Assembly: GCA_963602035.1 (NCBI GenBank)
Contig: CAVCHC010000001.1
Span: 25,351-89,350, forward strand
DNA length: 64,000 bases
Source: Acutalibacteraceae bacterium
GTDB lineage: Bacteria > Bacillota > Clostridia > Christensenellales > UBA1242
Direction of reading: 5' to 3'
Shown here: piece after piece, positions 501 through 45,488 of the stretch
How positions within the stretch are numbered: position 1 is the stretch's first letter
Layout: every line of letters begins with the position of its first letter
Position numbers and translations under genes: made by a program
The notes under the pieces: generated by a model
Told to the model about the DNA's origin: nothing
What the model saw: the letters and a program-made list of their open reading frames with translations, nothing else
Databases searched by the model: none

Positions 501-1272
501 ATATTGCTGTCATTGCGAGCGCAGCGTGGCAATCCCATTGTTAAAGTTGCAAGTTGAAATGCGGCTTGAAATTAAAGTTTAAAGTTGAAAGTTGAAAGTT
601 TAAATGCGGACGAGATTACAACATTACTACGAAGAATTGCAACGAATTTACTCATATAATTCCCAACTCCGCCCCCTTCTCGTCGCAACACGAACTTGTT
701 TTACGCTCAGCATTGCTAACGCAAGGGTTCGCTTTACTTACGTTCGGTTGCTCCTCTTCGCCTGCAAATTTTGTTCCAAAATTTTTGGCGAGCACGCTGA
801 CGCGTGAGGATAAAGCGGATAAGGATATAATGAGAGGGTTAATAAGGCAACTTGAAAAAAGAAAATACTCTATGTATGTCGAGATTGATAAACATAGAGT
901 ATTTTTTTATTATGATAATATTTTTGTCATTACAAGAAAACAAAACCGACATAGCAATCTCAGCCGCTTTATAGTACTCTCGTTTTTTATGCGGACTGAT
1001 TAACCCCTCTGTCTCGTTACGCTTTACGCTTCACTCAACGACCCTCCCCCTAAAGGGGGCGGAGTTGGGGAGTGTATAGGTAGATTTCAATTAATAATGA
1101 TTATTTATCGACAGTTTGTTTTAACCACGGTTGTAAGCGTAAATATATTTACAACGAACACTGACCGAAGTGCAACGTAGGTTTGGTGAGGGGTAAATGT
1201 ATTTACGCGGGTATATCAATTAACAATTGTAAATCCTCGGCCGCTTCTTTTCACTCTTAACTCTTCACTTTC
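501..1272. repeat. intergenic mosaic repeat complex 1
   Basis: Module order: A 508-540; AAAGTTK heptamer arrays 542-606; nested-palindrome element 662-1069, which contains module C 681-806 and module A 925-967; module E 1136-1210; RAGTGAA heptamer array 1244-1272, in minus-strand sense, abutting the cmk stop. Confidence 0.85.
662..1069. mobile_element. MITE-like nested-palindrome element, rearranged copy
   Basis: Left end is cccaactccgccccc. Right end is ccctccccctaaagggggcggagttggg. The inner core matches copies at 6023-6399 and 35653-35950 (gagggttaataaggcaactt ... tgcggactgattaacccctc) and has a terminator-like hairpin aaaatactctatgt/acatagagtattttttt. The left arm is replaced by module C. 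Confidence 0.7.
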
Positions 1273-2807: not shown

Positions 2808-3554
2808 ATGTGGGAACTTACTTTAAATTTCAGTCAAGATAAATCGCATTTTATGGACTTTTTATATTCAAAACTTGAAGGGCAAGTTAAGTTTTGTGGC
2901 GGCGTTATTATTCGTTCGTCGCGCGCGGGAAGGGTTAAAATCAGCCTCGCCGTGCCGCGAAAACAAAAGGACTATTTCGTTTTGCTTTTGTTAGAACTTG
3001 TAAGCGAGGTTATCACCCAAGACTTTAAGTTTGAATACCTTAACACCAATCTAGGCACGATTATTCCTAACGAACTGACGCGAGCGGCCTTTATTCGTGC
3101 GCTGACCGTTTTTGACAAACAGACTGACAAAGACCTTATAAAAAAGCAACTTGTTTTTGAAAATGAACTAAACATCGACAGCTTTTTCTATTTCAAACTG
3201 GGCGAACTGACCCAGCGCTGGCAAGAAATCTGCGTGTTGGTGCGCGAAAATATCTCGGCGTTGCAGGCGTCAGGAAGCCTTGCGGGACTTTTGAAATTTT
3301 TAATCAAAACCAGCGACATCGGTTACGACGAGGTGCACATCATTAAGCGCAAGGGCAGGTTCGTGTTGACTGACAAATCCAGCCGCCCCATCCACGCGCT
3401 GTTTGAGATGTGTGACAACAAGTCGCAGGCCGACACCATCGGCGACCTCATCCTTTTAAGCCCGTCAAAAATCGTCCTGCACCGCGCCACCGCCCGCGAA
3501 CCCTTTTTCGACTTTATCGAAAACCTTTTTGAAGACAAAGTTTGTATCGTTTAA
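2808..3554 (+). CDS. putative sporulation protein YtxC-like
   Basis: 248-aa ORF directly upstream of thrS, the position of ytxC in Bacillus. Sequence resemblance is weak and judged from memory only. Confidence 0.45.
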   Translation: MWELTLNFSQDKSHFMDFLYSKLEGQVKFCGGVIIRSSRAGRVKISLAVPRKQKDYFVLLLLELVSEVITQDFKFEYLNTNLGTIIPNELTRAAFIRALTVFDKQTDKDLIKKQLVFENELNIDSFFYFKLGELTQRWQEICVLVRENISALQASGSLAGLLKFLIKTSDIGYDEVHIIKRKGRFVLTDKSSRPIHALFEMCDNKSQADTIGDLILLSPSKIVLHRATAREPFFDFIENLFEDKVCIV

Positions 3555-3580
3555 TTTAACAAATTTGTTATGAAATTGTC

Positions 3581-3609
3581 TTGACAAGGTCGGGGGCGGC
3601 GGGTATAAT
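3581..3609 (+). promoter_or_regulatory. sigma-A-type promoter of the thrS leader
   Basis: TTGACA-17-TATAAT, with a G-rich spacer aggtcgggggcggcggg. Confidence 0.7.
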
Positions 3610-3615
3610 AGTTGT

Positions 3616-3840
3616 TGTTTAAAGGTAAAGACAAGTAGGTTGCGTCAATCGTTTTTAAGAGAGTTTGCCCATCGGCTGTAAGGCAAGCAAACAAGCGCAA
3701 GTGAAACCACTTTACGTTGTATTTAAGCACTCATCTTAATAAAAGTGGCGCGCAGAGGCGTGCAAATAAGGTGGAACCGCGGAGTAAACTTCGTCCTTAT
3801 GCTTACCCAGATAGTGGGCTAGTGTAAGGGCGTTTTTTAA
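3616..3840 (+). promoter_or_regulatory. T-box riboswitch leader (Thr specifier ACC)
   Basis: AGAGAG box near 3658. ACC followed by A at 3706-3709 in gtgaaACCAc. T-box sequence aaataaGGTGGAACCGCGg at 3764-3782. Terminator stem ccttatgcttaccc/gggctagtgtaagg plus a T-run at 3794-3838. Confidence 0.8.
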
Positions 3841-3917
3841 TGCAAAAATACTCCAATTGCTGCAAATTAAGATGGCGAAGAGGGTTGGGGTAAAAGTGAA
3901 ATGAAAATGACAATAAA

Positions 3918-3958
3918 AAGCGGCCGCATTTCAACTTTCAACTTTAAACTTTAACAAT
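3918..3958 (-). repeat. inverted AAAGTTK heptamer array with gcggccgcattt junction
   Basis: gcggccgcatttcaactttcaactttaaactttaac. The same junction plus array recurs at 6556-6590, 11357-11402 and 30078-30105. Confidence 0.8.
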
Positions 3959-4024
3959 TACACGATGCGTAAAATTTCACAACGAGAGAGTGTTTAAATC
4001 TATCAATCGAAAGGAGAAACAGAT

Positions 4025-5929
4025 ATGAAAATTCAATTAAGAGATGAAGTAAGAGAGTATCGCAAGGGAACAACGGTTGCCCAGATTGCTGAAAGCATCA
4101 GCGAGGGGTTGGCGCGCGTTGCGGTTTGTGGCAAGATTGGCGACGAATTAGTTGACCTTCAAACCAAGCTTAACCAAGACACTAAACTTACCATCATCAC
4201 GCCAAAAGACCCTGAATACAAGATGGTTATGCGTCACACTTGCGCGCACATTATGGCGCAGGCGGTTAAGGCGATTTATCCAACGGCCAAGTTGTCAATC
4301 GGCCCAGCAACCAACGAGGGGTTTTATTATGACTTTGACTTTAAAACGCCTATAACCCAAGAGGACCTTGGCAAGATTGAGGCCGAGATGAAGCGTATAA
4401 TTAAGGCCAATTTTGAAATTAAGCGTAAAGAGATAACCCGTTCGCAGGCCATCAAGCTTATGGACGAAAATGACGAGCCATTCAAAATCGAGCTTATTGA
4501 CGCTATTCCAGAGGGCGAAAAGATAACCATCTACACCCAGGGCGACTTTTTTGACGTCTGCCGCGGCCCACACCTTAAATCTACGGGTATGATTAAGGCA
4601 TTTAAGCTTACCAAACTTGCGGGCGCGTACTGGCGAGGCGATGAGCATAACAAGATGCTTAGCCGCGTTTATGGCGTATGTTTTGACAAGCAAAGCGAGA
4701 TGGATGACTATTTCAAGATGATTGAAGAGGCCGAAAAGCGTGACCACCGCAAACTTGGCAAAGAGCTTGACTTGTTCTTTTTAAGTGACTATGCGCCTGG
4801 GATGCCATTCTTTATGCCAAAGGGGCAAGTTGTAATTAACGAGCTTATCAACTTTTGGCGCGAAGAGCACGCAAAGGCGGGGTACGTTGAGATAACAACT
4901 CCAATCGCGCTTAACCGTGAACTTTGGGAAAAGAGCGGACACTGGGACCACTATAAAAAGAATATGTATACCTTTAAGGTTGAGGATGACGACTTCGCTA
5001 TCAAGCCTATGAACTGCCCAGGCGGTATGCTTTATTATAAAGAAAGGCTGCACAGTTATCGCGAGTTTCCTATGCGCGTGGCGGAACTTGGCAAGGTTCA
5101 TCGTCATGAGGCCAGCGGCACTTTGCACGGCTTGTTTAGGGTACGCTGCTTTACGCAAGACGATGCGCACATCTTTATGACGCCTGACCAAATCGAAACG
5201 GAAGTTGCGGGCATCATCAAACTTGTTGACAATATGTATAAGGTGTTTGGCCTGACTTATCACCTTGAACTTTCAACCATGCCAGACAACCACATTGGCG
5301 AACTTAGCGAGTGGCAGCATGCTGAAACCTGCCTTAAAAACGCCCTTACGCACCTTGGAAAAGAGTTTGTTATCAACGAGGGCGACGGCGCGTTCTATGG
5401 GCCAAAGATTGATATTCATATCAAAGACGCAATCGGCAGGACGTGGCAGTGCGGCACCATTCAACTTGATATGCAACTTCCTAAGCGCTTTAACCTTACG
5501 TATATGGACGCTGACGGGACGCACAAAGAGCCTATTATGGTTCACCGCGTAATTTTTGGGTCAGTCGAAAGGTTCTTTGGCGTTATAACAGAGCACTTTG
5601 CGGGCGCGTTCCCTACGTGGCTTAGCCCAGTTCAGGCGATTGTTATGAACGTTACGGACAAGTCAAGCGAGTATGCTAAACAAATCGCTGACAAACTTAA
5701 AGAGGCGGGTATTCGTACTGAACTTGACGTGCGCGCAGAGAAGATTGGTTACAAAATCAAAATGGCGCAATTGCAGAAAATACCTAATATGATTATCGTT
5801 GGCGAAAACGAGGTGGCGGCTGGTACTATCAGCGTGCGAAAACGCGGAAACATCGAACTTAAAGACGTTAAACTTGACGACTTTATCGCCGAAACCTTGC
5901 GCCAAATCAAAACCCGCGAGAGAAACTAA
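4025..5929 (+). CDS. thrS: threonine--tRNA ligase
   Basis: 634 aa with an N-terminal TGS-like domain and class II core motifs (HRHEASG, FRVRCFTQDDAHIF). RBS GAAAGGAGA. A Thr T-box lies upstream. Confidence 0.97.
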   Translation: MKIQLRDEVREYRKGTTVAQIAESISEGLARVAVCGKIGDELVDLQTKLNQDTKLTIITPKDPEYKMVMRHTCAHIMAQAVKAIYPTAKLSIGPATNEGFYYDFDFKTPITQEDLGKIEAEMKRIIKANFEIKRKEITRSQAIKLMDENDEPFKIELIDAIPEGEKITIYTQGDFFDVCRGPHLKSTGMIKAFKLTKLAGAYWRGDEHNKMLSRVYGVCFDKQSEMDDYFKMIEEAEKRDHRKLGKELDLFFLSDYAPGMPFFMPKGQVVINELINFWREEHAKAGYVEITTPIALNRELWEKSGHWDHYKKNMYTFKVEDDDFAIKPMNCPGGMLYYKERLHSYREFPMRVAELGKVHRHEASGTLHGLFRVRCFTQDDAHIFMTPDQIETEVAGIIKLVDNMYKVFGLTYHLELSTMPDNHIGELSEWQHAETCLKNALTHLGKEFVINEGDGAFYGPKIDIHIKDAIGRTWQCGTIQLDMQLPKRFNLTYMDADGTHKEPIMVHRVIFGSVERFFGVITEHFAGAFPTWLSPVQAIVMNVTDKSSEYAKQIADKLKEAGIRTELDVRAEKIGYKIKMAQLQKIPNMIIVGENEVAAGTISVRKRGNIELKDVKLDDFIAETLRQIKTRERN

Positions 5930-6650
5930 ACGCTGCGCGAGTGAAGAGTGAAGAGTGAAAAGTGAAAAGAAGCGGCTGGTGATTTTAATATCGCCGTGAA
6001 CGACTAATCTATACATCCACTCCCCAACTCCGCCCCCTTCAGGGGGAGGGCCGACGCGTTAAGAAAAGTTGCCAGTGGCAAGTTTTTAGCCAAAGGCGGG
6101 AGCGCCCCAAGCGCGGTCAGGCCGACAAGGCGGAGAACGTAGCGTGGAGCGCAGTGAGACGGAGGGGTTAATAAGGCAACTTGAATAAAGAAAATACTCT
6201 ATGTTAATTTATATCAACTAACATAGAGTATTTTTTTGTTATGATATTATTTTTGTCATTACGAGGAGGCAAGACCGACATAGCAATCTCAGCTGCTTTA
6301 TAATATTCTCGTTTTTTCTGCGGACTGATTAACCCCTCCGTCACGCCCTCCCTCAACGGTCGGCGTGCCCACCCTCCCCCTAAAGGGGGCGGAGTTGGGA
6401 AGGGTATGGGGAGATTTTGCTATATAATGATGTTAAACAACAAACTATCATAACGACATCAGCAAGCGTAAATATATTTACAACGAACACTGGTCGTAAC
6501 GCAGTGAAGAGTTGGTGAGGGGTAAATGTATTTACGCGAGTGCGCCAAATAAACAATAATAATCGGCCGCATTTCAACTTTAAACTTTAAACTTTAATTT
6601 CAAGCAACTTCTTTTCACTCTTCACTTTTAACTTTTCACTTCTTTGTTTA
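5930..6650. repeat. intergenic mosaic repeat complex 2
   Basis: GAGTGAA heptamer array 5939-5973, nested-palindrome element 6023-6399, module E 6465-6538, inverted AAAGTTK array 6564-6590, inverted AGTGAA array 6598-6633. The outer arrays are reverse complements of each other. Confidence 0.85.
6023..6399. mobile_element. MITE-like nested-palindrome element (gene-less copy)
   Basis: Arms cccaactccgcccccttcagggggaggg ... ccaccctccccctaaagggggcggagttggg. Inner ends gacggaggggttaataagg ... tgcggactgattaacccctccgtc. Core hairpin 6191-6237. Module A at 6254-6296. Confidence 0.8.
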
Positions 6651-9189: not shown

Positions 9190-9909
9190 ATGAGTGGACA
9201 CAGCAAGTTCCATAACATAAAAGCAACAAAAGACAAGGCCGATAAGGCGCGTTCAAATATCTTTACAAAAATCGGGCGTGAACTTGCGGTGGCGGTTAAG
9301 GCAGGCGGAGCGGACCCATCAACCAACAGCAAGCTTTATGACGTTATCCAAAAGGCTAAGCAAAACAATATGCCTAACGACACCATTCAGCGCAGTATCA
9401 AAAAGGCCAGCGGGGCAACGGATACTGACAACTTTGAGGCGATAACCTATGAAGGCTATGGGCCTCATGGCGTTGCGTTTATCGTTGAGTGTTTAACGGA
9501 TAACCGTAACCGAACCGCAAGCGACGTTCGCCATCTTTTTGATAAGCACGGCGGGTCACTTGGCACCAGCGGCAGCGTTATGTATATGTTTGACCGCAAG
9601 GGCGTCATTATGCTTGAACCAAAGGCCGGCGCAAGCGAAGACGATGTTATGATGGCGGCCATTGAGGCGGGTGCTGACGACGTTATAACCGAGGAGGACG
9701 GGTTTGTTATCTACACCAGCCCAGAGACCTTTCACGCCGTTTCAAAAGCCTTTGAAGATGCGGGCTTTAATGTTATTTCAAGTGAGATTGAATACATTTC
9801 AAGCAACCTTATACCTCTTGACGAGAGTCAGGCTGAAAGCATTGAAAAACTGAAAGACAAGCTTGAAGAGTTGGATGATGTGCAGGAGGTTTACACCAAC
9901 CTATCGTAA
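9190..9909 (+). CDS. YebC/PmpR-family transcriptional regulator
   Basis: MSGHSKFHNIKATKDKADKAR... canonical YebC N-terminus, 239 aa. Confidence 0.93.
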   Translation: MSGHSKFHNIKATKDKADKARSNIFTKIGRELAVAVKAGGADPSTNSKLYDVIQKAKQNNMPNDTIQRSIKKASGATDTDNFEAITYEGYGPHGVAFIVECLTDNRNRTASDVRHLFDKHGGSLGTSGSVMYMFDRKGVIMLEPKAGASEDDVMMAAIEAGADDVITEEDGFVIYTSPETFHAVSKAFEDAGFNVISSEIEYISSNLIPLDESQAESIEKLKDKLEELDDVQEVYTNLS

Positions 9910-10045
9910 AAACCGCTAAATTGAGCGATTAAGTGCAGAAAATGCGAGGCTTCCAAGAAGTCACGTACGAAAGTACGCTCTATCTTGATAAGCCTCTTTT
10001 TTCTTTCTTACTCATCTCAATTTAGCGGTTTTTACACGTGACTAA
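9908..10045 (+). repeat. long imperfect hairpin element L (copy 1)
   Basis: aaaaccgctaaattgag...ctcaatttagcggttttt followed by acacgtgactaat. It starts inside the TAA stop of the upstream gene. A paralogue lies at 32625-32766. Confidence 0.8.
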
Positions 10046-10099
10046 TGTGGAAAGCGTAGTACTAATTTTGTAGAGAATAATTAAAAAATCTAGAATGCT

Positions 10100-10360
10100 T
10101 ATGTCACAAAGAGTGACGAATTTATATATACTATTCCCAACTCCGCCCCCTGAAGGGGGCGGAGTTGGGGAGTATATATAGAGATGATGTTGCTGTGAGG
10201 GGTGGTTGTATAATCCCCAGCAACTTCTTTTAACTTTTCACTTTTAACTTTTAACTCCCAAGCATCGCGCGGTTTTGGGGATTGTCACGTCGGCGATGAC
10301 TTCTCGCAATGACAATATTAATCTCAGCACTATTTCAACTTTAAACTTTCAACTTTCGCT
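10100..10360. repeat. intergenic mosaic repeat complex 3
   Basis: Conserved flank gacgaatttatatatac, solo palindrome 10136-10169, inverted heptamer array 10224-10256, module A (minus) 10277-10314, inverted AAAGTTK array 10333-10357. Confidence 0.8.
10136..10169. repeat. solo 34-bp perfect palindrome (unoccupied form of the nested-palindrome element)
   Basis: cccaactccgCCCCCtgaaGGGGGcggagttggg. Its flanks are homologous to those of the occupied site at 32857-33581. Confidence 0.85.
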
Positions 10361-10372
10361 AGGAAGTTGGGG

Positions 10373-11194
10373 CTAAATGAGTTCGTGTTGCGACGCCTCG
10401 GCGGGGGCTTGGGAAAGGGTGTGGGTGGCGAAGAAGTCGGCGGGGAGGGCGACGGGGCGCATATCGCGGTAAAGCGTGCCGGACTCGTTGGCGTATTCGG
10501 GGCGGGTTGCAAGGATGGTGATTTGCTCGGCCGTGTACTCAGGTGGCAGGCTAAACATTTTTCGAATTATGCCCATCTTTTGGCGCAGGCCGATTGTGTT
10601 TTTGATATAAAAATCGGTGGTTGAGGGGCGCGGCGACACCATCAAAATGCCATACTTTGTTCCTTTTTTGGCAAGGGAAGTAAGCGCGCGGGCAAGCTCG
10701 GTTTTGCTGAAATAATACGCGCGGGTGAAAGTGTTGATTTTGTTAGGCGTAATCTTGGGTTTAAGCCTGTCAGCCACAACAAAAATGGCGCGTGAATTTG
10801 TGCGCTTTTCAAGTTCGGCGCCAAGGCTGTTAAGCAGTGCAAGAGGTGCTTGCAGGTTGACAATTTTTTGCTCTTCGTTTTCAGCGTGCGGCGTGAAATT
10901 CTTGCCCGAAAAAACGCCCGCACAGTTAATAAACGCGTCAAGCCCTGAATTAAGTTCGCCCAAAAGGTCAAGGGTTTCGCGCGTCGCCTCGGTCACGCTT
11001 GAAAGGTCGATAAAGTCCGCGTGCACCACATAAAGGCGATGGACGCGGATGTTTTTAAGCGCCAAGTCGGCAAGCATCAACTCTTCGTCGACCTTGTTTT
11101 TGACCCACGCAACAACGATGTAATCCCTAAGCAAAAGTTTTTCAACGCACCTAAGGCCAATGCCAGACCCAGCACCCGTTACAACAGCAACCAT
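10373..11194 (-). CDS. short-chain dehydrogenase/reductase family protein
   Basis: TGAGSGIG cofactor motif at the N-terminus and a YYFSK catalytic motif. RBS AAAAGGAGA precedes the ATG at 11194. Confidence 0.75.
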   Translation of the reverse strand: MVAVVTGAGSGIGLRCVEKLLLRDYIVVAWVKNKVDEELMLADLALKNIRVHRLYVVHADFIDLSSVTEATRETLDLLGELNSGLDAFINCAGVFSGKNFTPHAENEEQKIVNLQAPLALLNSLGAELEKRTNSRAIFVVADRLKPKITPNKINTFTRAYYFSKTELARALTSLAKKGTKYGILMVSPRPSTTDFYIKNTIGLRQKMGIIRKMFSLPPEYTAEQITILATRPEYANESGTLYRDMRPVALPADFFATHTLSQAPAEASQHELI

Positions 11195-12158: not shown

Positions 12159-14252
12159 ATGAAAAAGCAATATAAGTTGTTGAATATGCATTGCGCGGGG
12201 TGTGCGGACGCGCTGGAACAAAAGTTGAAAACGCTTGACGGTGTTAAGGCCGTGCAGGTCAACTTTATCACCAAGATTTTGACGTTTGAACCCGAGCGCG
12301 GCGTGGACGTAAACGAACTTAGCGAGCGCGTTTGCAACGCCGTTGTTAAGTTTGACCGTATGATAAAAATCGAGAACCCCGAAGACGAGGAGACGGTTAA
12401 AGAGAAAAAGGCTAAGCAGGTTAAGATGTGGCTTATTCTTTCAAGCGCCGTGCTGTTTTTGACCGCATTTATTCTTGACAAAACGGGCGTCAACTTTTGG
12501 GTGTCGCTGGGGTTTTATATCGCGGCCTATGCGCTTTCGGGTTTTGAAATTTTGTGGGCGAGCGCGGTAAACATTGCGCACGGTAAAATTTTTGACGAGA
12601 ACTTTTTGATGTCGGTTGCCACCATCGGCGCCTTCGCGATAGGCAAATACGCCGAGGCCGTTATGGTTATGCTGTTGTATCAAATTGGCGAGTGGCTGCA
12701 AGACCGCGCGGTTATGCGCTCTAAAAAGGCGATAACGAACCTGCTTAACATTAAGGCGAAAGTGGCGAACCTTGTTACCGACGACGGCGAGATTCAGGTT
12801 GACCTTGACCGCGTTGCCGTTGGCAGCATTATCCGCATCAAGCCCGGCGAAAACGTGCCTCTTGACGGCATTATCACGTTTGGCACCAGCAATGTGAACA
12901 CCTCTGCGCTGACGGGTGAAAGCGCCGAGATAACCAAAACCATAGGCGACGAAATCCTTTCGGGCACCATCAACGGCGAGGGCGTTTTGCTTGTTAAAGT
13001 GACCAAAAACGAGAAAGACAGCACCGTTTCAAAAATCATCGATATGGTAGAGTCGGCCAGTATGCAAAAGGCCAAAACCGAGAATTTTATCTCTAAATTT
13101 GCTAAGGTTTATACGCCGATAGTGTGCTTGGTGGCCGTGCTTATCGCGATTGTTCCGTGCTTAGTTTTGGGGTTTGGCGTCTTTTCAACGTACCTTTATC
13201 GCGGCCTGATATTCTTGGTTGTAAGTTGCCCGTGTGCGCTTGTTATTTCGGTGCCGCTAAGCTTTTTTGCGGGGCTTGGGGCAGCGGCCAGGAAGGGCGT
13301 TTTGGTTCGTGGCAGCAACTTTTTAGAGGCGCTTAGCCGCGTAGACACCGTTATTTTTGATAAAACGGGCACGCTTACCCAGGGCGAGTTTAAAATAGAC
13401 AAAATCACGGCGTTTGGCGAAAACACCCAAAAAGACGTTTTAGAGTACATCGCCTACGCCGAAAGTTACAGCAATCACCGCATTGCGCGTTCGGTTGTTG
13501 AAAGATATCTTGAAAACAACGAAATCAACAGCGCGTGGATAGAGGACATGACCGAGCACGCAGGGCTTGGGATTGAAGCCAAAATCTTTATGAACCCCGT
13601 TTTGGTTGGGTCGCGCTTGCTGCTTGAACAAAACGGCGTTAAAATCAACGGCGACGCTGACGGTCAAACGGCGATTTATCTTGCGGTGGCGGGCGAGCAC
13701 GCGGGCACGATTACGCTTACTGACACCATCAAGCCTGACGCAAAAACGGCGGTGCGCGACCTTAAAACCCTTGGCGTTAAACAGGTTTTGATGTTTACGG
13801 GCGACAATGAAAAGGTGGCCAGCGCGGTGGCGGGCGAGTTGGGGCTTGATGGGTTCCACGCGAATATGCTTCCGCAAGACAAGGTCAGCCGCCTTGCTGA
13901 ATACGAAAAGGCGTCTAAGGGGCTGGCGTTTGTTGGCGATGGCATTAACGACGCGCCCGTTTTGGCTAGCGTTGACGTTGGCGTTGCGATGGGCGGCGTG
14001 GGCAGCGATGTTGCGGTTGAGGCAAGCGACGTTGTTTTGATGACCGACGAGCCGTCTAAGATGGTTGACGCGATTAAAACCGCGCGAAAAACGCATAAAA
14101 TCGTTACCGAAAACGTGACGTTTGCGCTTGCGATTAAACTGGCCGTTTTGGCGCTTGGCGCGTTTGGCCTTGCGGGGATGTGGCTGGCGATTTTTGCGGA
14201 CGTGGGCGTAAGTTGCCTTGCGGTTTTAAACAGCCTCCGCGCGATGAAATAG
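12159..14252 (+). CDS. cadA: heavy-metal (Cd/Zn/Co-type) translocating P1B-type ATPase
   Basis: N-terminal HMA domain with a CAGC motif, TM CPC motif (VSCPCALV), DKTGTLT, GDGINDAP. Confidence 0.9.
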   Translation: MKKQYKLLNMHCAGCADALEQKLKTLDGVKAVQVNFITKILTFEPERGVDVNELSERVCNAVVKFDRMIKIENPEDEETVKEKKAKQVKMWLILSSAVLFLTAFILDKTGVNFWVSLGFYIAAYALSGFEILWASAVNIAHGKIFDENFLMSVATIGAFAIGKYAEAVMVMLLYQIGEWLQDRAVMRSKKAITNLLNIKAKVANLVTDDGEIQVDLDRVAVGSIIRIKPGENVPLDGIITFGTSNVNTSALTGESAEITKTIGDEILSGTINGEGVLLVKVTKNEKDSTVSKIIDMVESASMQKAKTENFISKFAKVYTPIVCLVAVLIAIVPCLVLGFGVFSTYLYRGLIFLVVSCPCALVISVPLSFFAGLGAAARKGVLVRGSNFLEALSRVDTVIFDKTGTLTQGEFKIDKITAFGENTQKDVLEYIAYAESYSNHRIARSVVERYLENNEINSAWIEDMTEHAGLGIEAKIFMNPVLVGSRLLLEQNGVKINGDADGQTAIYLAVAGEHAGTITLTDTIKPDAKTAVRDLKTLGVKQVLMFTGDNEKVASAVAGELGLDGFHANMLPQDKVSRLAEYEKASKGLAFVGDGINDAPVLASVDVGVAMGGVGSDVAVEASDVVLMTDEPSKMVDAIKTARKTHKIVTENVTFALAIKLAVLALGAFGLAGMWLAIFADVGVSCLAVLNSLRAMK

Positions 14253-14413
14253 GGGGGGGCGACCCCACGGCTTACGAGGGCGTCGGCACGGTTTTTATGG
14301 CTGTACTAGGCCACAATTCGCGTGACGTACTTGGGCGTCAAAAAATTACAAAATTCGACAAAATTTTTAGTATTAATATGGGCGCGTATGCGGGCAAAAA
14401 ATGCGGGCGCGTC

Positions 14414-14442
14414 TTGACAATCTCCTTAATCTGTGGTACAAT
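14414..14442 (+). promoter_or_regulatory. sigma-A-type promoter of LbH gene 1
   Basis: TTGACA-17-TACAAT with an extended -10 TG. Confidence 0.65.
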
Positions 14443-14464
14443 ACCCAGGCTTAGGGAGATTTTT

Positions 14465-15454
14465 ATGTTTTATAGTAATTTTAGTAAAAGTACTGACAAA
14501 TATTATCTTAATCCAAACGATTATATTGACGTGGCTGAGCCGGCTGCGTCGATATTTGAAACGCCCGTTGTGCACAGGCTTTATCGCGTGGTTTATCTTA
14601 AAAGCATTGCGTTTAACGCCGATTGTTACCCAATTTCTCCGGGGACGGAGGGTGGCTATATTGAAAGCGAAAGCAACCTGTCTCAGGCGGGCAACTGCGT
14701 GGTTTTAGACGGCGCAAGGGTGTTTGGCAGCGCTAATGTTTCGGGCGACGCGTGCGTGTGTGACGAGGCAACAATTTATGGCCGTGCGGTGATTAAAAAC
14801 AATGCGCTGGTTTGCGGCGGGGCGTGCGTGTGTGATGACGCGCGGGTTATAATGAATGGTATTGTTGATGGCAACGCGTGCGTGGCGGGCAATGCGGTTG
14901 TTTGTGACTGTGCACACGTTTTTGACGGGGCTACCATTGGCGGCAGTGCGTTTGTAAGCGGCCAAGCGATGGTTTTAGGCAGTGCGGTTATAAAAGACAG
15001 CGCGATTGTTACCGACAATGCGATTGTAAGTGGTCAAGCGACAATTTCAGGCAGCGCGGTTATAAAAGATAGCGCGGGCGTGTTTGACAACGCTAACGTT
15101 TCGGGGTTTGCTAAACTTGAAAAGCGCGCGAGGGCGTATGACGATTGTTGCATTACGGACGCGGCGCGGGTAAGCAACCGTGCGATGATTATCGGCGGGG
15201 CGACCGTTGGCGGCAAGGCGTGCATTTTTGATAACGCGGTTGTTGGCGGCCGTGCAAGCGTTTTGGGTAACTCGTACGTCGGCACGAATGTAGAAGTTAA
15301 AGGCAACGCAAGGCTTGACGATAAGCAGCAAAAATTTTATCAAAACGTAATCATAAACGGCGCCGAAATTGAGTATCAATCAGGCAATGCTGAATACAAT
15401 GCAGAGAATGTTGACGCTAGTCAAGACGACGCAACCAGCCAGCCTAATGCGTAA
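14465..15454 (+). CDS. left-handed beta-helix (hexapeptide-repeat) protein, YdcK-like
   Basis: About 35 consecutive hexapeptide units ([GDN]xAx[VI]x). The N-terminal segment (RLYRVVYL..GTEGGYIESESNLSQAGNCVV) resembles E. coli YdcK as I recall it. RBS AGGGAGA precedes the ATG at 14465. The ORF-track start at 14180 overlaps cadA. Confidence 0.6.
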   Translation: MFYSNFSKSTDKYYLNPNDYIDVAEPAASIFETPVVHRLYRVVYLKSIAFNADCYPISPGTEGGYIESESNLSQAGNCVVLDGARVFGSANVSGDACVCDEATIYGRAVIKNNALVCGGACVCDDARVIMNGIVDGNACVAGNAVVCDCAHVFDGATIGGSAFVSGQAMVLGSAVIKDSAIVTDNAIVSGQATISGSAVIKDSAGVFDNANVSGFAKLEKRARAYDDCCITDAARVSNRAMIIGGATVGGKACIFDNAVVGGRASVLGNSYVGTNVEVKGNARLDDKQQKFYQNVIINGAEIEYQSGNAEYNAENVDASQDDATSQPNA

Positions 15455-15560
15455 TTACACGGGGCGGGCAAAGTTAGTAACGCTTGTGTAATTACACGGG
15501 GCGGGCAAAGTTAGTAACGCTTGCGTAATTAGGTGCGGGCGAACTAAGTTAGCATAAATT
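15449..15560 (+). repeat. 3 x 37-bp tandem repeat that reiterates the gene end and stop codon
   Basis: gcgTAAttacacggggcgggcaaagttagtaacgctt / gtgTAAttacacggggcgggcaaagttagtaacgctt / a degenerate third unit. Confidence 0.85.
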
Positions 15561-15617
15561 ATGTGTAATATTCGCGGGCAGATTGGGTCGGCGGATTTAT
15601 TGAAAAAGGAAGAAAAA

Positions 15618-16373
15618 ATGAGCAAAGTTTCAATAAAAAATCAAAAGTTTAGGCTTGGCTATCCAAGCACGCTTATATTTGACAATATGGGCAAAACGAT
15701 TAATGTTTTCAGGGTTGAGTACCTGCGTGACATTCCGCGTTTTAACATCAAAAAAGGTGACAAGGGCGGGTTTGTTGAGTATGCGGGCAACCTTAGTCAA
15801 GACGACGACGCGGTTATTGTTGGCAACGCGGTTGTAACGGGCAGCGCGTGGGTTTTTGGCGACGCTTGTGTTTGTGGCAACGCGCGAGTGTCTGGCGAGG
15901 CGTGGGTCGGCGAAAAGGCAATTATTTCGGGCGACGGCAGGGTGTTTGACCACGCGGTTGTTGGCGGCCGTGCGCAGGTTTGTATGGGCGCACAGGTGTT
16001 TGAAAATGCACGTGTTGGCGAAGACGCGGTGATAACGGGCAATGCGCGTGCGTGTGGTAATGCGCTTGTTACGGGGTCGGCGAAGGTGTCGGGCTCGGCT
16101 GAGGTTAGCGGCGACGTAAAAATTGGCGACAAGGCGATTGTGACCGACGGGGCAAAGGTTTGTCAGGCGGCGCAAATTAATGGCAATGCGCTTGTTTGTA
16201 AGCGCGCGAAAATCGGCGGCCACGCGAAGATAACTGACAACGCGGTGGTTGGCGGCTATTGCGTTATCGGCGGAAAAACGCAGGTTGTTGGCTCGGCCGA
16301 ACTATCAGGGCACGTTAAAAACTTAGCGGGCGACATCATTGACGCTGACATTCACGTTGAGAAAACGAAATAG
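15618..16373 (+). CDS. left-handed beta-helix (hexapeptide-repeat) protein, YdcK-like paralogue
   Basis: Same architecture as the previous gene (VFRVEYL..KGGFVEYAGNLSQ followed by hexapeptide repeats). RBS AAAGGAAG precedes the ATG at 15618. Confidence 0.6.
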   Translation: MSKVSIKNQKFRLGYPSTLIFDNMGKTINVFRVEYLRDIPRFNIKKGDKGGFVEYAGNLSQDDDAVIVGNAVVTGSAWVFGDACVCGNARVSGEAWVGEKAIISGDGRVFDHAVVGGRAQVCMGAQVFENARVGEDAVITGNARACGNALVTGSAKVSGSAEVSGDVKIGDKAIVTDGAKVCQAAQINGNALVCKRAKIGGHAKITDNAVVGGYCVIGGKTQVVGSAELSGHVKNLAGDIIDADIHVEKTK

Positions 16374-29614: not shown

Positions 29615-30105
29615 AGAGTTAAAAGTGAAAAGTGAAAAGAAGCGGCTGGAATTAAATTGCTGTTACTAGTAACTTGTACGTGCCTGTCATTGCGAGGAAC
29701 GTAGTGACGTGGCAATCCCATTGCTAGGGGAAGAGACGATGTTACCAGCGCAGCTCCGCCCCCTTGGCTCGTCGCAACTCGAACTTGTTTAACGCTCAGC
29801 CCTACTAACGTAGGTGTTCGCTTATCTCTCGTTCGGTTGCTCCTCTTCGCCTGCAAATTTTATGCTAAAATTTTTGGCGAGCACGCTTGCGCGTGGGGAT
29901 AAATCGGCTGAGATTATCGCGTCGTTACACTCCTCGTAATGACAATTAGCAGCAGACCATTTTAGCGACATCGGTAAGCGTAAATATATTTACAACGAAC
30001 ACTGGCCGAAGCATGGCGTAGGTTTGGTGAGTGTAAATGTATTTATGCGGGTGCACCGAATAGATACTGCAAATAATCGGCCGCATTTAAACTTTAAACT
30101 TTCAA
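29609..30105. repeat. intergenic mosaic repeat complex Y
   Basis: RAGTGAA array 29609-29643 (the trmD TGA stop is part of the first unit), module A 29685-29723, partial palindrome gctccgccccc, module C 29770-29895, module A (minus) 29906-29944, module E 29977-30050, inverted AAAGTTK array 30085-30105. Confidence 0.85.
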
Positions 30106-32279: not shown

Positions 32280-32624
32280 ATGAGTAATGTTATTGATGCT
32301 ATTGAAAAAGAAGGTATGCGCGCTGATATCCCTGAGTTTAACATTGGTGACACGATTAAGGTTTACGCTAAAATCGTTGAAGGCAACCGCGAAAGAATTC
32401 AAGGCTTTGAAGGCGTGGTAATAGCTCGCAGAAACGGTGGAATAAGAGAAACTTTCACGGTTCGTCGTGTATCATTCGGTATCGGCGTTGAGAAAACTTA
32501 TCCGCTTCACTCACCAAAGATCGACCACATTGAAATCGTTCGTAAAGGTGATGTAAGACGTGCTAAACTTTACTATCTTCGTGAACGTAGTGGGAAGTCG
32601 GCGAAAGTAAAAGAAAAGAAATAG
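32280..32624 (+). CDS. rplS: 50S ribosomal protein L19
   Basis: [35 protein letters not shown]... typical L19. Confidence 0.96.
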
Positions 32625-32766
32625 TTAAAACCGCAAATTTGCGCGACTAAATGCAGAAAAGACAACGTCACTAAGCGTTGCAGCCGAAAAGGCTAGCTAC
32701 CGCTTAGATGACAACGTCTTTTCTTTTTTATTCATCACAAATTTGTGGTTTTAACACGTGACTAAT
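32625..32766 (+). repeat. long imperfect hairpin element L (copy 2)
   Basis: ttaaaaccgcaaatttg...acaaatttgtggtttt followed by aacacgtgactaat. Starts 1 nt after the rplS stop. Confidence 0.8.
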
Positions 32767-32821: not shown

Positions 32822-32995
32822 ACAGCAGAAGCTGCGACGAATTTATATATACAATTCCCAACTCCGCCCCCTTTAGGGGGAGGGTGGTCGAACGTAGCGT
32901 AGAGCGTAGTGAGACGGAGGGGTTAATAAGTCCGCAGAAAAAACGGTGGTGCTATAAATTGGCAATGTTTGTTTTTTACTAATATTTTATAATAA

Positions 32996-33024
32996 TTTAC
33001 AAAATCTAACTGCGTTGATATAAT
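32996..33024 (+). promoter_or_regulatory. internal promoter of the DUF559 cassette
   Basis: TTTACA-17-TATAAT. The ATG at 33031 lies 6 nt after the -10 with no RBS, so the transcript is probably leaderless. Confidence 0.55.
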
Positions 33025-33030
33025 TTGAAT

Positions 33031-33399
33031 ATGATACAATACAATAACTATAATTATAAATTCGCAAAACGTATGCGCAAAAATATGACGCCGTGGGAGT
33101 TGCGGCTTTGGGAATTATGCTTACGCAAATTACCATTGCGGTTTAAACGTCAACATTTGCTAGGAACCTACATCGTGGATTTTTATTGCGCCAAGGCCAA
33201 GTTGGTTGTTGAAATAGATGGAGGCCAGCACTATTACGATGACGATACACAAAACAAAGATGCCGAGCGAGACGAGTTTTTAAAATCGCAGGGGCTTACG
33301 ATATTGCGCTTTTCGGACACTCACATTCACTATTTTTTTGAAAGTGTGTGCGCAGAGATATACAAGGCAATAGAACCATACTTAAATAAAGAAAGTTAA
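33031..33399 (+). CDS. DUF559 (Vsr/MutH-like fold) endonuclease-domain protein
   Basis: MTPWELRLW..LRFKRQH..YIVDFYC...LVVEIDGGQHY....D..RD.FL...G..ILRF pattern typical of DUF559, 122 aa. Confidence 0.8.
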   Translation: MIQYNNYNYKFAKRMRKNMTPWELRLWELCLRKLPLRFKRQHLLGTYIVDFYCAKAKLVVEIDGGQHYYDDDTQNKDAERDEFLKSQGLTILRFSDTHIHYFFESVCAEIYKAIEPYLNKES

Positions 33400-33444
33400 T
33401 TTTTTAGAAGATGCATATTTTTTAGATTTTGAGAGAACATAATA

Positions 33445-33500
33445 AAAGAAGGTGTTATAGTTCGGTTGGTTTAACCAAATTATAATACCTTCTTTTTTTC
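33445..33500 (+). terminator. hairpin terminator inside the DUF559 element
   Basis: aaaagaaggtgttata ... tataataccttcttttttt, merging into the right TIR. Confidence 0.6.
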
Positions 33501-33668
33501 TGCGGACTGATTAACCCCTCCGTCTTGTGTCGCTCTACGCTCCACTGCGACCACCCTCCCCCTAAAGGGGGCGGAGTTGGGTTAGGGAAGTGGGGCGGAT
33601 GCCATAGGGGTTAAAAGTTAAACCTGAGATTGTATCTTGAAAAAAATGAAAAATTTTGGAAAATTCTC

Positions 33669-35534: not shown

Positions 35535-35548
35535 TAAAAAGCTTATTA

Positions 35549-35588
35549 AGCACCAATGTGGCACAACCGCCCGTTGGTGTTTTTTTGT
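35549..35588 (+). terminator. intrinsic terminator after tsf
   Basis: Stem caccaa...ttggtg followed by T8. Confidence 0.7.
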
Positions 35589-35652
35589 TGCCTTTTTGCG
35601 GAGTAACGTATGTTAAAATTGACATTGTTAAAGTTATACTCTCTATCCTTTC

Positions 35653-35950
35653 CCCAACTCCGCCCCCTTTAGGGGGAGGGTGGTCGAACGTAGTGTGGAG
35701 CGGAGTGAGACGGAGGGGTTAATCAGTCCGCAGAAAAAACGAGAATATTATAAAGTGGCTGAGATTACCACGTCGGCCTTGCCTCCTCGTAATGACAAAA
35801 ATAATACCACAATAAAAAAATACTCTATGTTTATCAATATTGACTTACATAGAGTATTTTCTTTTTTCGAGTTGCCTTATTAACCCCTCCGTCACGCCAT
35901 CCCTCCACGGTCGGCGTGCCCACCCTCCCCCTGAAGGGGGCGGAGTTGGG
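35653..35950 (-). mobile_element. MITE-like nested-palindrome element (gene-less copy, inverted core)
   Basis: Arms cccaactccgccccctttagggggagggtgg ... ccaccctccccctgaagggggcggagttggg. The core is the reverse complement of the 6023-6399 core, with module A at 35758-35797 and the hairpin aaaatactctatgt/acatagagtatttt. Confidence 0.8.
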
Positions 35951-36144
35951 AAGTGTATGGGGAGATTTCTCTCTATAAGGATATTAACCAGGCAGATAGT
36001 TTTAGAAACGTCAGCAAGCGTAAATATATTTACAACAAACACTGACTGAAACGCAGTGGAAGTTTGGTGAGAGGTAAATGTATTTACGCGGATAAGATAA
36101 ATAATACTAAAAAATAAAAATCAATATTTCAACTTTAAACTTTC
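35951..36144. repeat. module E plus inverted AAAGTTK array
   Basis: Conserved junction gtgtatggggagattt, module E 36017-36091, array 36127-36144. Confidence 0.8.
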
Positions 36145-36179
36145 CGCGTTGTGACGACGCAACGAGGAGGTGGTAAACG

Positions 36180-36208
36180 TTGACAAAAGCGGGGGTTTAG
36201 GATAAAAT
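36180..36208 (+). promoter_or_regulatory. possible promoter of the lipid kinase gene
   Basis: TTGACA-17-TAAAAT with spacer aaagcgggggtttagga. The -10 ends only 6 nt before the ATG, so either the transcript is leaderless or the real promoter is elsewhere. Confidence 0.4.
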
Positions 36209-36214
36209 AGGGGT

Positions 36215-45166: not shown

Positions 45167-45243
45167 AATTGCTTTCATAAATAATAATTAGATAAAGTTC
45201 TCGGCTTTTACCCCTGACTTGTTGTAATGTATACAATGTTAAA

Positions 45244-45460
45244 CAGTCTCCGCCCCCTTGGGGGAGGGTCGTCTCGCAAACCGCAGAGGTGCAGCGGGAC
45301 AGAGGGGGTCTAAGTCCTATAAAAAATAAGAAGATACTTTACGTTAGTAAATATTTGCTAACATAATGTATCTTCTTTTTTTAAGTTGATTTTATACCCC
45401 CTCCGAGTTTCGTCGCTCTACGCTCCTCAACACTATCCTCCCCCAAGGGGGCGGAGTCTG
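45244..45460. mobile_element. MITE-like nested-palindrome element, subfamily 2
   Basis: Arms cagtctccgcccccttgggggaggg ... cctcccccaagggggcggagtctg. Inner ends gacagagggggtctaagtcct / ttataccccctccgag. Core hairpin aagaagatac..gtatcttcttttttt. Confidence 0.7.
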
Positions 45461-45488
45461 CTCAATGTGGGTAAGTGACTCTAACAAT

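Follow-up and report, generated by a model that had tools for sequence, protein, structure and literature searches.

A solo palindrome as a candidate footprint of a nested-palindrome element family that includes a DUF559 nuclease gene

In a 64,000-nt stretch of an Acutalibacteraceae genome (contig CAVCHC010000001.1), which we call the window, a short palindrome lies at positions 10136-10169 between the convergent genes yebC and SDR. The two halves of this palindrome recur at 32857-33581, between rplS and rpsB, where they enclose an open reading frame (ORF) for a DUF559 protein. This raises the question of whether the solo palindrome is a site that such an element has yet to enter or one that it has left. 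A first-pass annotation made from the DNA letters called it a paralogous empty site, with a G/C hairpin as the probable target, and read the pair of loci as insertion into, or excision or recombination from, the hairpin. We found that solo and filled palindromes are alternative alleles of one chromosomal site. The reading that we favour, and to which we give about an even chance, is that the solo palindrome is a deletion footprint, a bodyless allele similar to a solo long terminal repeat (LTR), of a family of intergenic elements built as nested palindromes. The family's complete member, a mini-element of approximately 725 bp, encodes a DUF559 (Vsr-like) nuclease.

Solo and filled palindromes as alleles of one site

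The sequence at 10136-10169, cccaactccgCCCCCtgaaGGGGGcggagttggg, is formed by a perfect 15-bp inverted repeat of CCCAACTCCGCCCCC and a 4-nt loop. Its earlier description as a perfect 34-bp palindrome was slightly overstated, as the loop, tgaa, is asymmetric and not self-complementary. Folded as single-stranded DNA (ssDNA), the palindrome has a predicted free energy of -20.1 kcal/mol (z = -7.9), and together with its AT-rich outer arms (10120-10185) it reaches -26 kcal/mol (z = -10.3). Within the window there are 10 exact copies of the 15-mer, although only about 1.5 matches are expected even at three mismatches. These occurrences form five inverted pairs (662/1069, 6023/6399, 10136/10169, 32857/33581, and 35653/35950), that is, one solo and four filled sites, one of which contains the DUF559 gene while three are non-coding. 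Degenerate relatives lie at 29749 and 45243-45465. The DUF559-occupied site is thus a real counterpart of the solo, but one of four filled sites with two degenerate relatives besides. Its 15-mers are identical to those of the solo, as first annotated, and lie 695 bp apart rather than 690. A CCCCC-N4-GGGGG hairpin is present at both junctions, with the loop ttta at the left (CCCCCtttaGGGGG, 32867-32880) and taaa at the right (CCCCCtaaaGGGGG, 33558-33571).

Every filled site is a nested palindrome. From the outside inward it consists of an AT-rich imperfect inverted repeat, a 10-bp arm (cccaactccg), the hairpin CCCCC-tt[tc]a-GGGGG, a variable segment B that ends with GACGGAGGGGTTAAT, the repeat cagtccgcagaaaaaa, and the cargo. 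In the full element, each end has the outer arm cccaactccg, hairpin 1 (CCGCCCCC-N4-GGGGGAGG), a variable hairpin 2, and GGAGGGG, and the two ends are mirror images. Segment B occurs in at least five variants which, along with an unrelated module X, are freely combined: the DUF559 element is always B1/B2, and other pairings are B2/B3, B1/B4, X/B3, and B5/B4. As inverted repeats, the element ends extend from 34 nt (100% complementary) to 96 nt (73%). All 10 of the 15-mers are identical, the inner arms are merely 73-87% alike, and the flanks outside the 15-mer are 69-92% alike between loci. The fold of a single arm into a T shape was no better than that of shuffled sequence (z about 0 and -1.6).

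Read inward, the loop of the hairpin is tt[tc]a in all 25 arms, the exceptions being one decayed arm and those that are joined to module X. It follows that the hairpins at the two junctions are mirror copies and did not arise by duplication of a target. There was no direct repeat outside the ends of the window elements or of 17 units from other taxa. The junction hairpins CCGCCCCC/GGGGGAGG contain a G.A mismatch and the solo is perfect, as seen in alignments to the covariance model R2 described below. The inner cargo of 155 nt at 6173-6327 matches 35724-35879 in reverse-complement orientation (score 117 versus 38 in direct orientation). Both cargoes are bounded by GACGGAGGGGTTAAT / ATTAACCCCTCCGTC repeats, and they could be invertible DNA or the product of insertion in either orientation.

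The source is an uncultured Clostridia bacterium of the human gut. Proteins encoded in the window were found again in metagenome assemblies from the human gut and in NCBI metagenome-assembled genomes (MAGs) named 'Clostridia bacterium'. The sequences compared below, which are given handles such as L134, all come from metagenome or draft assemblies, with runs of N in L124. Orthologues of the yebC-SDR spacer were obtained from ten strains retrieved by way of an identical L20 protein. In strain L134, a non-coding family member of approximately 295 bp fills the palindrome at this site. The flanks are nearly identical to those of the window, and the two strains have in common the upstream hairpin module L and the gacgaatttatatatac / agtatata flanks. 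The loop of the window solo, tgaa, is the right-junction loop of L134. The spacer of L135 has a half-site joined to module X, and in the other eight strains the palindrome is absent and different mosaics of repeat modules are present instead. The exact context of the solo site is thus found in two strains only, those of the window and L134.

The rplS-rpsB site is filled with the DUF559 element in the window and in eight assemblies (L124, L126, L138, L229, L233, L234, L236, and L237). In L123 and L125 this site contains a decayed solo, cccaactgcctcataagggggcggagttggg, with a 3-nt deletion and substitutions, of which L125 has more. In L121 an unrelated two-gene cassette takes the place of the DUF559 element, making the rplS-rpsB spacer a cassette hot spot. 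This cassette (3346-4819) comprises a small minus-strand ORF and an ORF of 167 aa. Only its first codons are kept in L123 and L125 (about 3640-3790), where the end junction reads AGTTGGG, a fragment of the outer half-site.

Because L134 is filled at the window's solo site and L123 and L125 are solo at the window's DUF559 site, solo and filled are alternative states of one chromosomal site. The difference between the two begins and ends within the CCCCC-N4-GGGGG hairpin. This part of the first-pass annotation, that the two are the same type of locus with conversion confined to the hairpin, was borne out.

Across rpsB-tsf the window is 97.5% identical to the other strains, which are 99-99.9% identical among themselves. 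By this measure the window strain is the outgroup, yet it is filled at rplS-rpsB. The window elements downstream of thrS and tsf are missing from every other strain that was retrieved; for the 6023-6399 element, the spacer lacks it in all ten. In the sequences compared, solos are rarer than filled sites, with one solo and four filled pairs in the 64 kb of the window and one solo locus in about 120 kb from other strains.

Near-identical DUF559 elements were found in two right-hand contexts, either 5' of rpsB or 5' of a HTH_3-cation ATPase gene pair, and both contexts are robust. At the HTH_3 locus the left neighbour varies (L118, L119, L230, L231, L235, and L238), being tuf, rpsI, rplS, or an M16 peptidase gene. 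Identical DUF559 coding sequences (CDS) have different genes upstream, a peptidase M16 gene in L118 and tuf in L119. These variable neighbours may be real rearrangements at repeats or assembly chimeras. Look-ups of exact proteins gave no record for SpoU, RpsB, RimP, and the window DUF559; the only record obtained with YebC and SDR was a fragment of the strain from which the window itself comes.

The DUF559 gene and its two-hairpin ends

The window contains one DUF559 gene. A profile of the family matches PDB 3hrl (1.3e-22), the homing endonuclease I-Bth0305I in its catalytic domain (PDB 3r3p, 9e-5), and a PADLOC 'homing endonuclease' model (8e-5). The match to 3r3p is in line with PMC3424549, in which VSR and DUF559 are placed together with a homing endonuclease of a group I intron. 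Six residues that are invariant over 35 homologues (D50, E61, D63, H67, D77, and R80) are all present in the window protein. Compared with copies from other strains, the window gene has 12-17 synonymous and 1-2 non-synonymous codon differences, and every copy is intact. By these counts the ORF is under purifying selection and the gene is maintained. In papers that mention DUF559 we found no tested function except for a Vsr-like repair activity recently reported in Caulobacter (PMC12907096). DUF559 proteins are enriched among predicted programmed inversions, with an odds ratio of 14 (PMC9881135), which fits genes that are enclosed by inverted repeats. The best promoter-like site ends 6 nt 5' of the DUF559 ATG (32996-33031) with no visible Shine-Dalgarno sequence. 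The mRNA may be leaderless.

Metagenome contigs were searched with aligned DUF559 homologues that are 43-53% identical to the protein of the window, which gave 80 loci. In 16 of the 61 loci whose flanks were long enough, the inverted repeats between the upstream and downstream sides exceeded the 99th percentile of controls made from mismatched pairs. GC-rich hairpins of 7 bp or more occurred within 160 nt on the upstream side in 53 of 74 loci and on the downstream side in 42 of 69, compared with 31 of 822 control windows. The arms share a layout of hairpin 1 (CCTCCCTC-loop-GAGGGAGG or variants), TG, a hairpin 2 of free sequence, and GGAGGGAGAGA. In compact units, which are about 450 bp long, GGAGGGAGAGA is the ribosome-binding site and lies a few bases 5' of the ATG. 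In the compact homologues the GGAGGG of the motif thus serves as ribosome-binding site, whereas no Shine-Dalgarno sequence is visible in the window copy.

Two covariance models were built from these arms, R1 from seven seeds and R2 from 150 R1 matches; their E-values are rough. In most of the 80 loci, R1 or R2 placed the motif on the plus strand just upstream of the ORF and on the minus strand just downstream. Bifidobacterium biavatii, a cultured actinobacterium, has the same pair around a DUF559 gene (E 5e-10 and 1e-9), and its unit too lies within a longer nested palindrome with perfect outer arms of 16 bp. In the window, R2 found the arms of the DUF559 ORF (33031-33399) in the expected orientation, plus upstream and minus downstream, and its best match to the non-coding elements had an E-value of 2e-4. 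The alignment had been fitted to the model, which favours structure to some degree. In it, 95.4% of cells were paired (shuffled 73.4%, slid controls 45-64%), 403 cells showed double changes (shuffled 124, slid controls 33-82), and 15 of 15 pairs had a compensatory change (shuffled 10.5, slid controls 8-9). This covariation supports both hairpins. The loci L164 and L192 have 452 bp in common that run exactly from outer edge to outer edge of the motifs, with unrelated flanks and no target duplication. The motif is not in Rfam: no family matched at gathering thresholds, and relaxing the limit to E 1 brought chance-level matches only. Searches of the DUF559 literature, for the motif string, for DUF559 mobility, and for inverted repeats of Vsr elements found no published account of a DUF559/two-hairpin unit.

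On these comparisons, the motif pair flanking a DUF559 gene is a conserved unit in many bacteria, and the hairpin of the window palindrome is the first hairpin of this motif. DUF559 proteins form a very large family, and in at least one large subfamily the gene travels in a covarying two-hairpin shell of inverted repeats. This shell may explain the enrichment of DUF559 among predicted programmed inversions (PMC9881135). Together, the polymorphic unit, its non-coding look-alikes, and the solo remnants point to a selfish-element lifestyle for the nucleases of this subfamily.

In four of the loci from other taxa (L164, L186, L210, and L215), the unit directly follows a similar small hairpin ending in gcacca and precedes gggctg, which hints at a preferred context or at one more outer layer in these taxa as well. 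A scan of the genome collection with the bare 15-mer gave only chance matches in GC-rich genomes, apart from a Pseudobdellovibrio MAG (L027, 1706-1798) in which an inverted pair of the identical 15-mer lies 63 nt apart around another small palindrome.

Origin of the solo palindrome

Since the centre of the solo is hairpin 1 of a motif that travels with DUF559 genes elsewhere, the solo is unlikely to be a naive target, and the 'empty target site' of the first-pass annotation probably has the wrong polarity. The mirrored loops also argue against a target duplicated upon insertion. Loss is favoured over gain because solos are scarce, the solos of L123 and L125 are decaying, and the outgroup is filled at rplS-rpsB.

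A deletion could arise from the structure of the element. As hairpin 1 is self-complementary, the inverted ends also share about 14 nt of CCCCC-N4-GGGGG as a direct repeat, placed at the foot of a palindrome of 260-690 bp. If this palindrome folded back during replication, slippage or recombination between the hairpin copies would remove the body, and the outer halves, once joined, would form a perfect stem of 15 bp. With a crossover in the left C-run, the product would be exactly the window sequence, including the right-type loop. The loop tgaa that the solo shares with the right junction of L134 is as expected for such a crossover, and the G.A mismatch in junction hairpins that is missing from the solo is as expected from the joining of two outer halves. 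Refilling from a filled paralogue by gene conversion through the shared flanks would be possible, and the nuclease might promote it. Precise excision between short direct repeats that is stimulated by inverted repeats and independent of transposase is well established (Foster et al. 1981, as cited in PMC2615605). In the precise excision of Tn10/Tn5, and in the formation of solo LTRs, the body is likewise lost between short repeats at the foot of inverted repeats and a single copy is left. By contrast with Tn10/Tn5, the direct repeat here is the element's own self-complementary hairpin rather than a target duplication, and the product is a perfect hairpin.

Several observations weigh against a deletion footprint. 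The polarity at the solo site rests on two strains with the context, and eight have neither form. The flanks of the solos in L123 and L125 differ from those of the filled rplS-rpsB alleles, so that these solos are not simple deletion derivatives. An insertion model would yield the same junctions, and with repeats of this size the metagenome assemblies may contain chimeras. Last, the 15-mers are perfect in ten of ten cases while the inner arms have diverged. This conservation suggests recognition by a sequence-specific protein, which passive slippage would not need, and the DUF559 nuclease is the only candidate for this role with a physical link to the family.

A bolder proposal, which we regard as possible but less likely than not, goes further. 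The DUF559 gene and its paired two-hairpin ends may form an unrecognised class of autonomous mini mobile elements, down to about 450 bp in size. The Vsr-like nuclease would recognise the hairpin ends or the closed palindrome and drive gain, loss, or inversion; the non-coding copies would be dependants similar to miniature inverted-repeat transposable elements (MITEs), and the solos would be footprints or landing pads. If true, such mini-elements would be spread across Clostridia and Actinobacteria.

The main rival is a homing-type target, which we consider viable but rather unlikely. In this model, a dimeric DUF559 protein recognises the closed palindrome, in which 4 bp separate the two 15-bp half-sites; a cut solo is repaired from a filled paralogue by way of the shared flanks, and filled sites are immune because their half-sites are split. 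The empty site of the first-pass annotation would then be literally correct. DUF559 falls in the Vsr clade (EDxHD) with the proven homing endonuclease I-Bth0305I (PMC3424549), and both show presence or absence at a fixed site, here rplS-rpsB, with no target duplication. The ORF is intact and under purifying selection, the perfectly conserved 15-mer is what a recognition site predicts, and the likeness of the flanks beyond it would permit repair. Near-identical elements beside rpsB or HTH_3, and identical CDS behind different genes in L118 and L119, also fit this model. However, insertion into the centre of the palindrome predicts half a hairpin at each junction, and a complete hairpin was found at each. 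Units in other taxa stop at the outer edge of hairpin 1 and have unrelated flanks, which would require a matching hairpin at every target. The window elements occupy spacers that are palindrome-free in other strains, and the solos are few, some of them decaying. Compared with the free-standing or intron-borne homing genes of this type, the DUF559 unit is intergenic instead of lying within an intron or gene, is wrapped in inverted two-hairpin ends and nested palindromes, and has non-coding relatives with the same ends; its cleavage activity is predicted.

An improbable alternative is that the repeat is moved by an unlinked enzyme, either a REP-associated tyrosine transposase (RAYT; REP, repetitive extragenic palindrome) or the transposase of an insertion sequence (IS) with matching ends, and that DUF559 is a passenger between two repeat units. 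Three of the four filled elements are non-coding with outer ends in common, as with MITEs, and their arms combine as freely (B1/B2, B2/B3, B1/B4, X/B3, B5/B4) as in mosaic bacterial interspersed mosaic elements (BIMEs). The spacers of this species are themselves mosaics of repeat modules, and REPs, REP doublets (REPINs), and BIMEs are likewise GC-rich extragenic palindromes, single or in inverted pairs, that form mosaics in intergenic spacers. A passenger is not expected to keep its link with the motif across phyla, as DUF559 does (53/74 and 42/69 loci versus 31/822 controls). No transposase, integrase, or RAYT was found among the approximately 55 ORFs of the window, and a target duplication and the tetranucleotide GTAG or CGTC, which is conserved at one end of REP/RAYT (REPIN) palindromes (PMC3733652), are both absent, the tetranucleotide from within and next to 10136-10169. 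The pairs described here differ from REPs in that they enclose a cargo of 260-690 bp that can include a nuclease gene, of the PD-(D/E)XK rather than the HUH-Y1 type. The family also resembles MITEs with internal insertions (ERIC/IRU, Correia, and nested MITEs), which are likewise small, end in terminal inverted repeats, have non-coding copies, and vary in size through internal segments. The elements at 662-1069, 6023-6399, and 35653-35950 have such terminal repeats and are small and non-coding. Unlike MITEs, the family lacks a target-site duplication and a parent IS with a recognised transposase, and its sole coding relative is the 122-aa DUF559.

It is very improbable that the solo is an independent host hairpin (a terminator, an mRNA stabiliser, or a protein-binding site) that merely resembles the element ends: its very stable fold and its place between convergent genes, where a bidirectional terminator is expected, speak for one, but there is no T tract 3' of the hairpin on either strand (tails agttgggga and agttgggaat), a terminator scan raised no flag, the hairpin is missing from the site in eight of ten other strains, its 15-mer is identical to the element ends with shared flanks, and L134 has a filled allele.

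Assignments to known systems were also rejected. Target-site duplication as the source of the junction hairpins was rejected for their mirror-image loops, and flip/flop hairpin-transfer replication, as in parvoviruses, for the lack of a flopped loop in any arm. The solo is no intrinsic terminator, as no T tract follows the hairpin. An integron attC site or gene cassette was rejected because the flanking units are mirror images rather than direct repeats and no tyrosine recombinase is present in the 64-kb window; CCCAAC...GTTGGG presumably resembles attC core sites. As first annotated, the family belongs to neither IS200/IS605 nor REP/RAYT. The element ends are inverted repeats, while IS200/IS605 elements lack these at their termini and have a different subterminal hairpin at either end; DUF559 is the only ORF of the element, and no Y1 HUH transposase (TnpA) or TnpB was found among the approximately 55 window ORFs. 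The lack of the GTAG/CGTC tag at the palindrome argues against REP/RAYT, and no RAYT was found in the 64-kb window. For the suggested resemblance to hairpin-recognising ssDNA transposition we found nothing specific in support. Hairpins are known to harbour mobile DNA, as with ISs in REP or terminator hairpins (ISPpu9 of the IS110 family, IS1397) and group II introns at terminators. Those elements have recombinases of their own and split or abut the palindrome, whereas here the hairpin is owned by the element and duplicated as mirror copies.

Repeat modules and other features of the window

The coordinates of the family members and of associated features are collected in Table 1.

Table 1. Features of the element family and its surroundings. 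Positions refer to the window unless another sequence is named; R2 E-values are rough.
Feature	Position	Strand	Basis or match
Full DUF559 element, 725 bp, bounded by inverted 15-mers	32857..33581	+	
Left arm, two-hairpin motif: hairpin 1 CCGCCCCC-ttta-GGGGGAGG, variant B1, GACGGAGGGGTTAAT	32861..32929	+	R2, E 6e-3
Promoter-like site TTTACA-17-TATAAT, 11/12, TG extended, directly 5' of DUF559 start	32996..33024	+	Consensus match only
DUF559 ORF, putative Vsr-like PD-(D/E)XK nuclease, 122 aa, intact	33031..33399	+	Pfam PF04480, 1.4e-30
Hairpin then T run, 3' of DUF559 stop, within element	33438..33502	+	Inverted-repeat scan, sequence
Right arm, two-hairpin motif inverted, variant B2	33508..33577	-	R2, E 1e-2
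Solo palindrome, stem CCCAACTCCGCCCCC, loop tgaa	10136..10169	.	R2 match weak, 10140-10176, E 0.026
Extended imperfect inverted repeat, AT-rich outer layer around solo	10120..10185	.	32-nt arms, 81% complementary
Non-coding family member, 408 bp; left arm module X, right arm B3	662..1069	.	
Non-coding family member, 377 bp; arms B5/B4	6023..6399	.	R2, E 2e-4 at 6326-6395
Non-coding family member, 298 bp; arms B1/B4	35653..35950	.	
Degenerate half-site (CGCAGCTCCGCCCCC) joined to module X	29749..29917	+	
Diverged relative, nested palindrome cagtctccgccccc...gggggcggagtctg, central terminator-like hairpin	45243..45465	.	
Long hairpin module L, 20-bp perfect outer arms, and linker acacgtgactaat, 3' of yebC	9906..10046	+	
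Long hairpin module L and linker acacgtgactaat, 3' of rplS	32624..32766	+	
Motif pair around DUF559 in other sequences	Metagenome loci L139-L217; L219/L220, 1366-1418 and 1934-1988	+ and - (L219/L220)	

The solo and DUF559 sites had been described as sharing an upstream context. Both indeed follow an L hairpin, and the outer arms of these hairpins (9906-10035 and 32624-32755) are related. In the window acacgtgactaat occurs only at 10034 and 32754, and gacgaatttatatatac only at 10115 and 32836. This does not indicate a special link between the two sites, as such modules form a mosaic throughout the genome. The intergenic spacers of the species are mosaics of repeat modules that differ among strains with 99% core identity, as seen at 5940-6640, 9910-10372, and 35535-36214 of the window and in the spacers of L121-L137. 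In short-read assemblies of gut Clostridia, elements of this size cause breaks or false joins, and they may mark hot spots of intergenic turnover and rearrangement beside highly expressed genes.

The modules of the spacers include L hairpins, gtcattgcgag...ggcaatc units, module X, and a gcgtaaatatatttac...gtaaatgtatttacgc module. Runs of (aaagtt[gt]aa)n or (gtgaaaa)n form the outermost inverted repeats, so that whole spacers are nested palindromes. The 3' end of the SDR gene, on the minus strand at 10376-10412, contains agttcgtgttgcgacg followed by ggcgggggcttggg and resembles the junction of module X and half-palindrome in L135 (gttcgtgttgcgacgagaagggggcggagttggg). Possibly this is the remnant of an old repeat that was absorbed into the coding sequence.

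The genes of the window are housekeeping genes and the spoIIIA operon. Near the 662-1069 element, between cmk and ytxC, is a gene for a stand-alone protein with a Mrr_cat restriction-endonuclease domain (2067-2681, Pfam 1.3e-31), whose PADLOC matches are the ZorD, PDC-S02, and type IV REase models. The adjacent ORFs 14180-15454 and 15561-16373, which match YdcK beta-solenoid and hexapeptide repeats, contain 18-nt periodic repeats (14738-15955).

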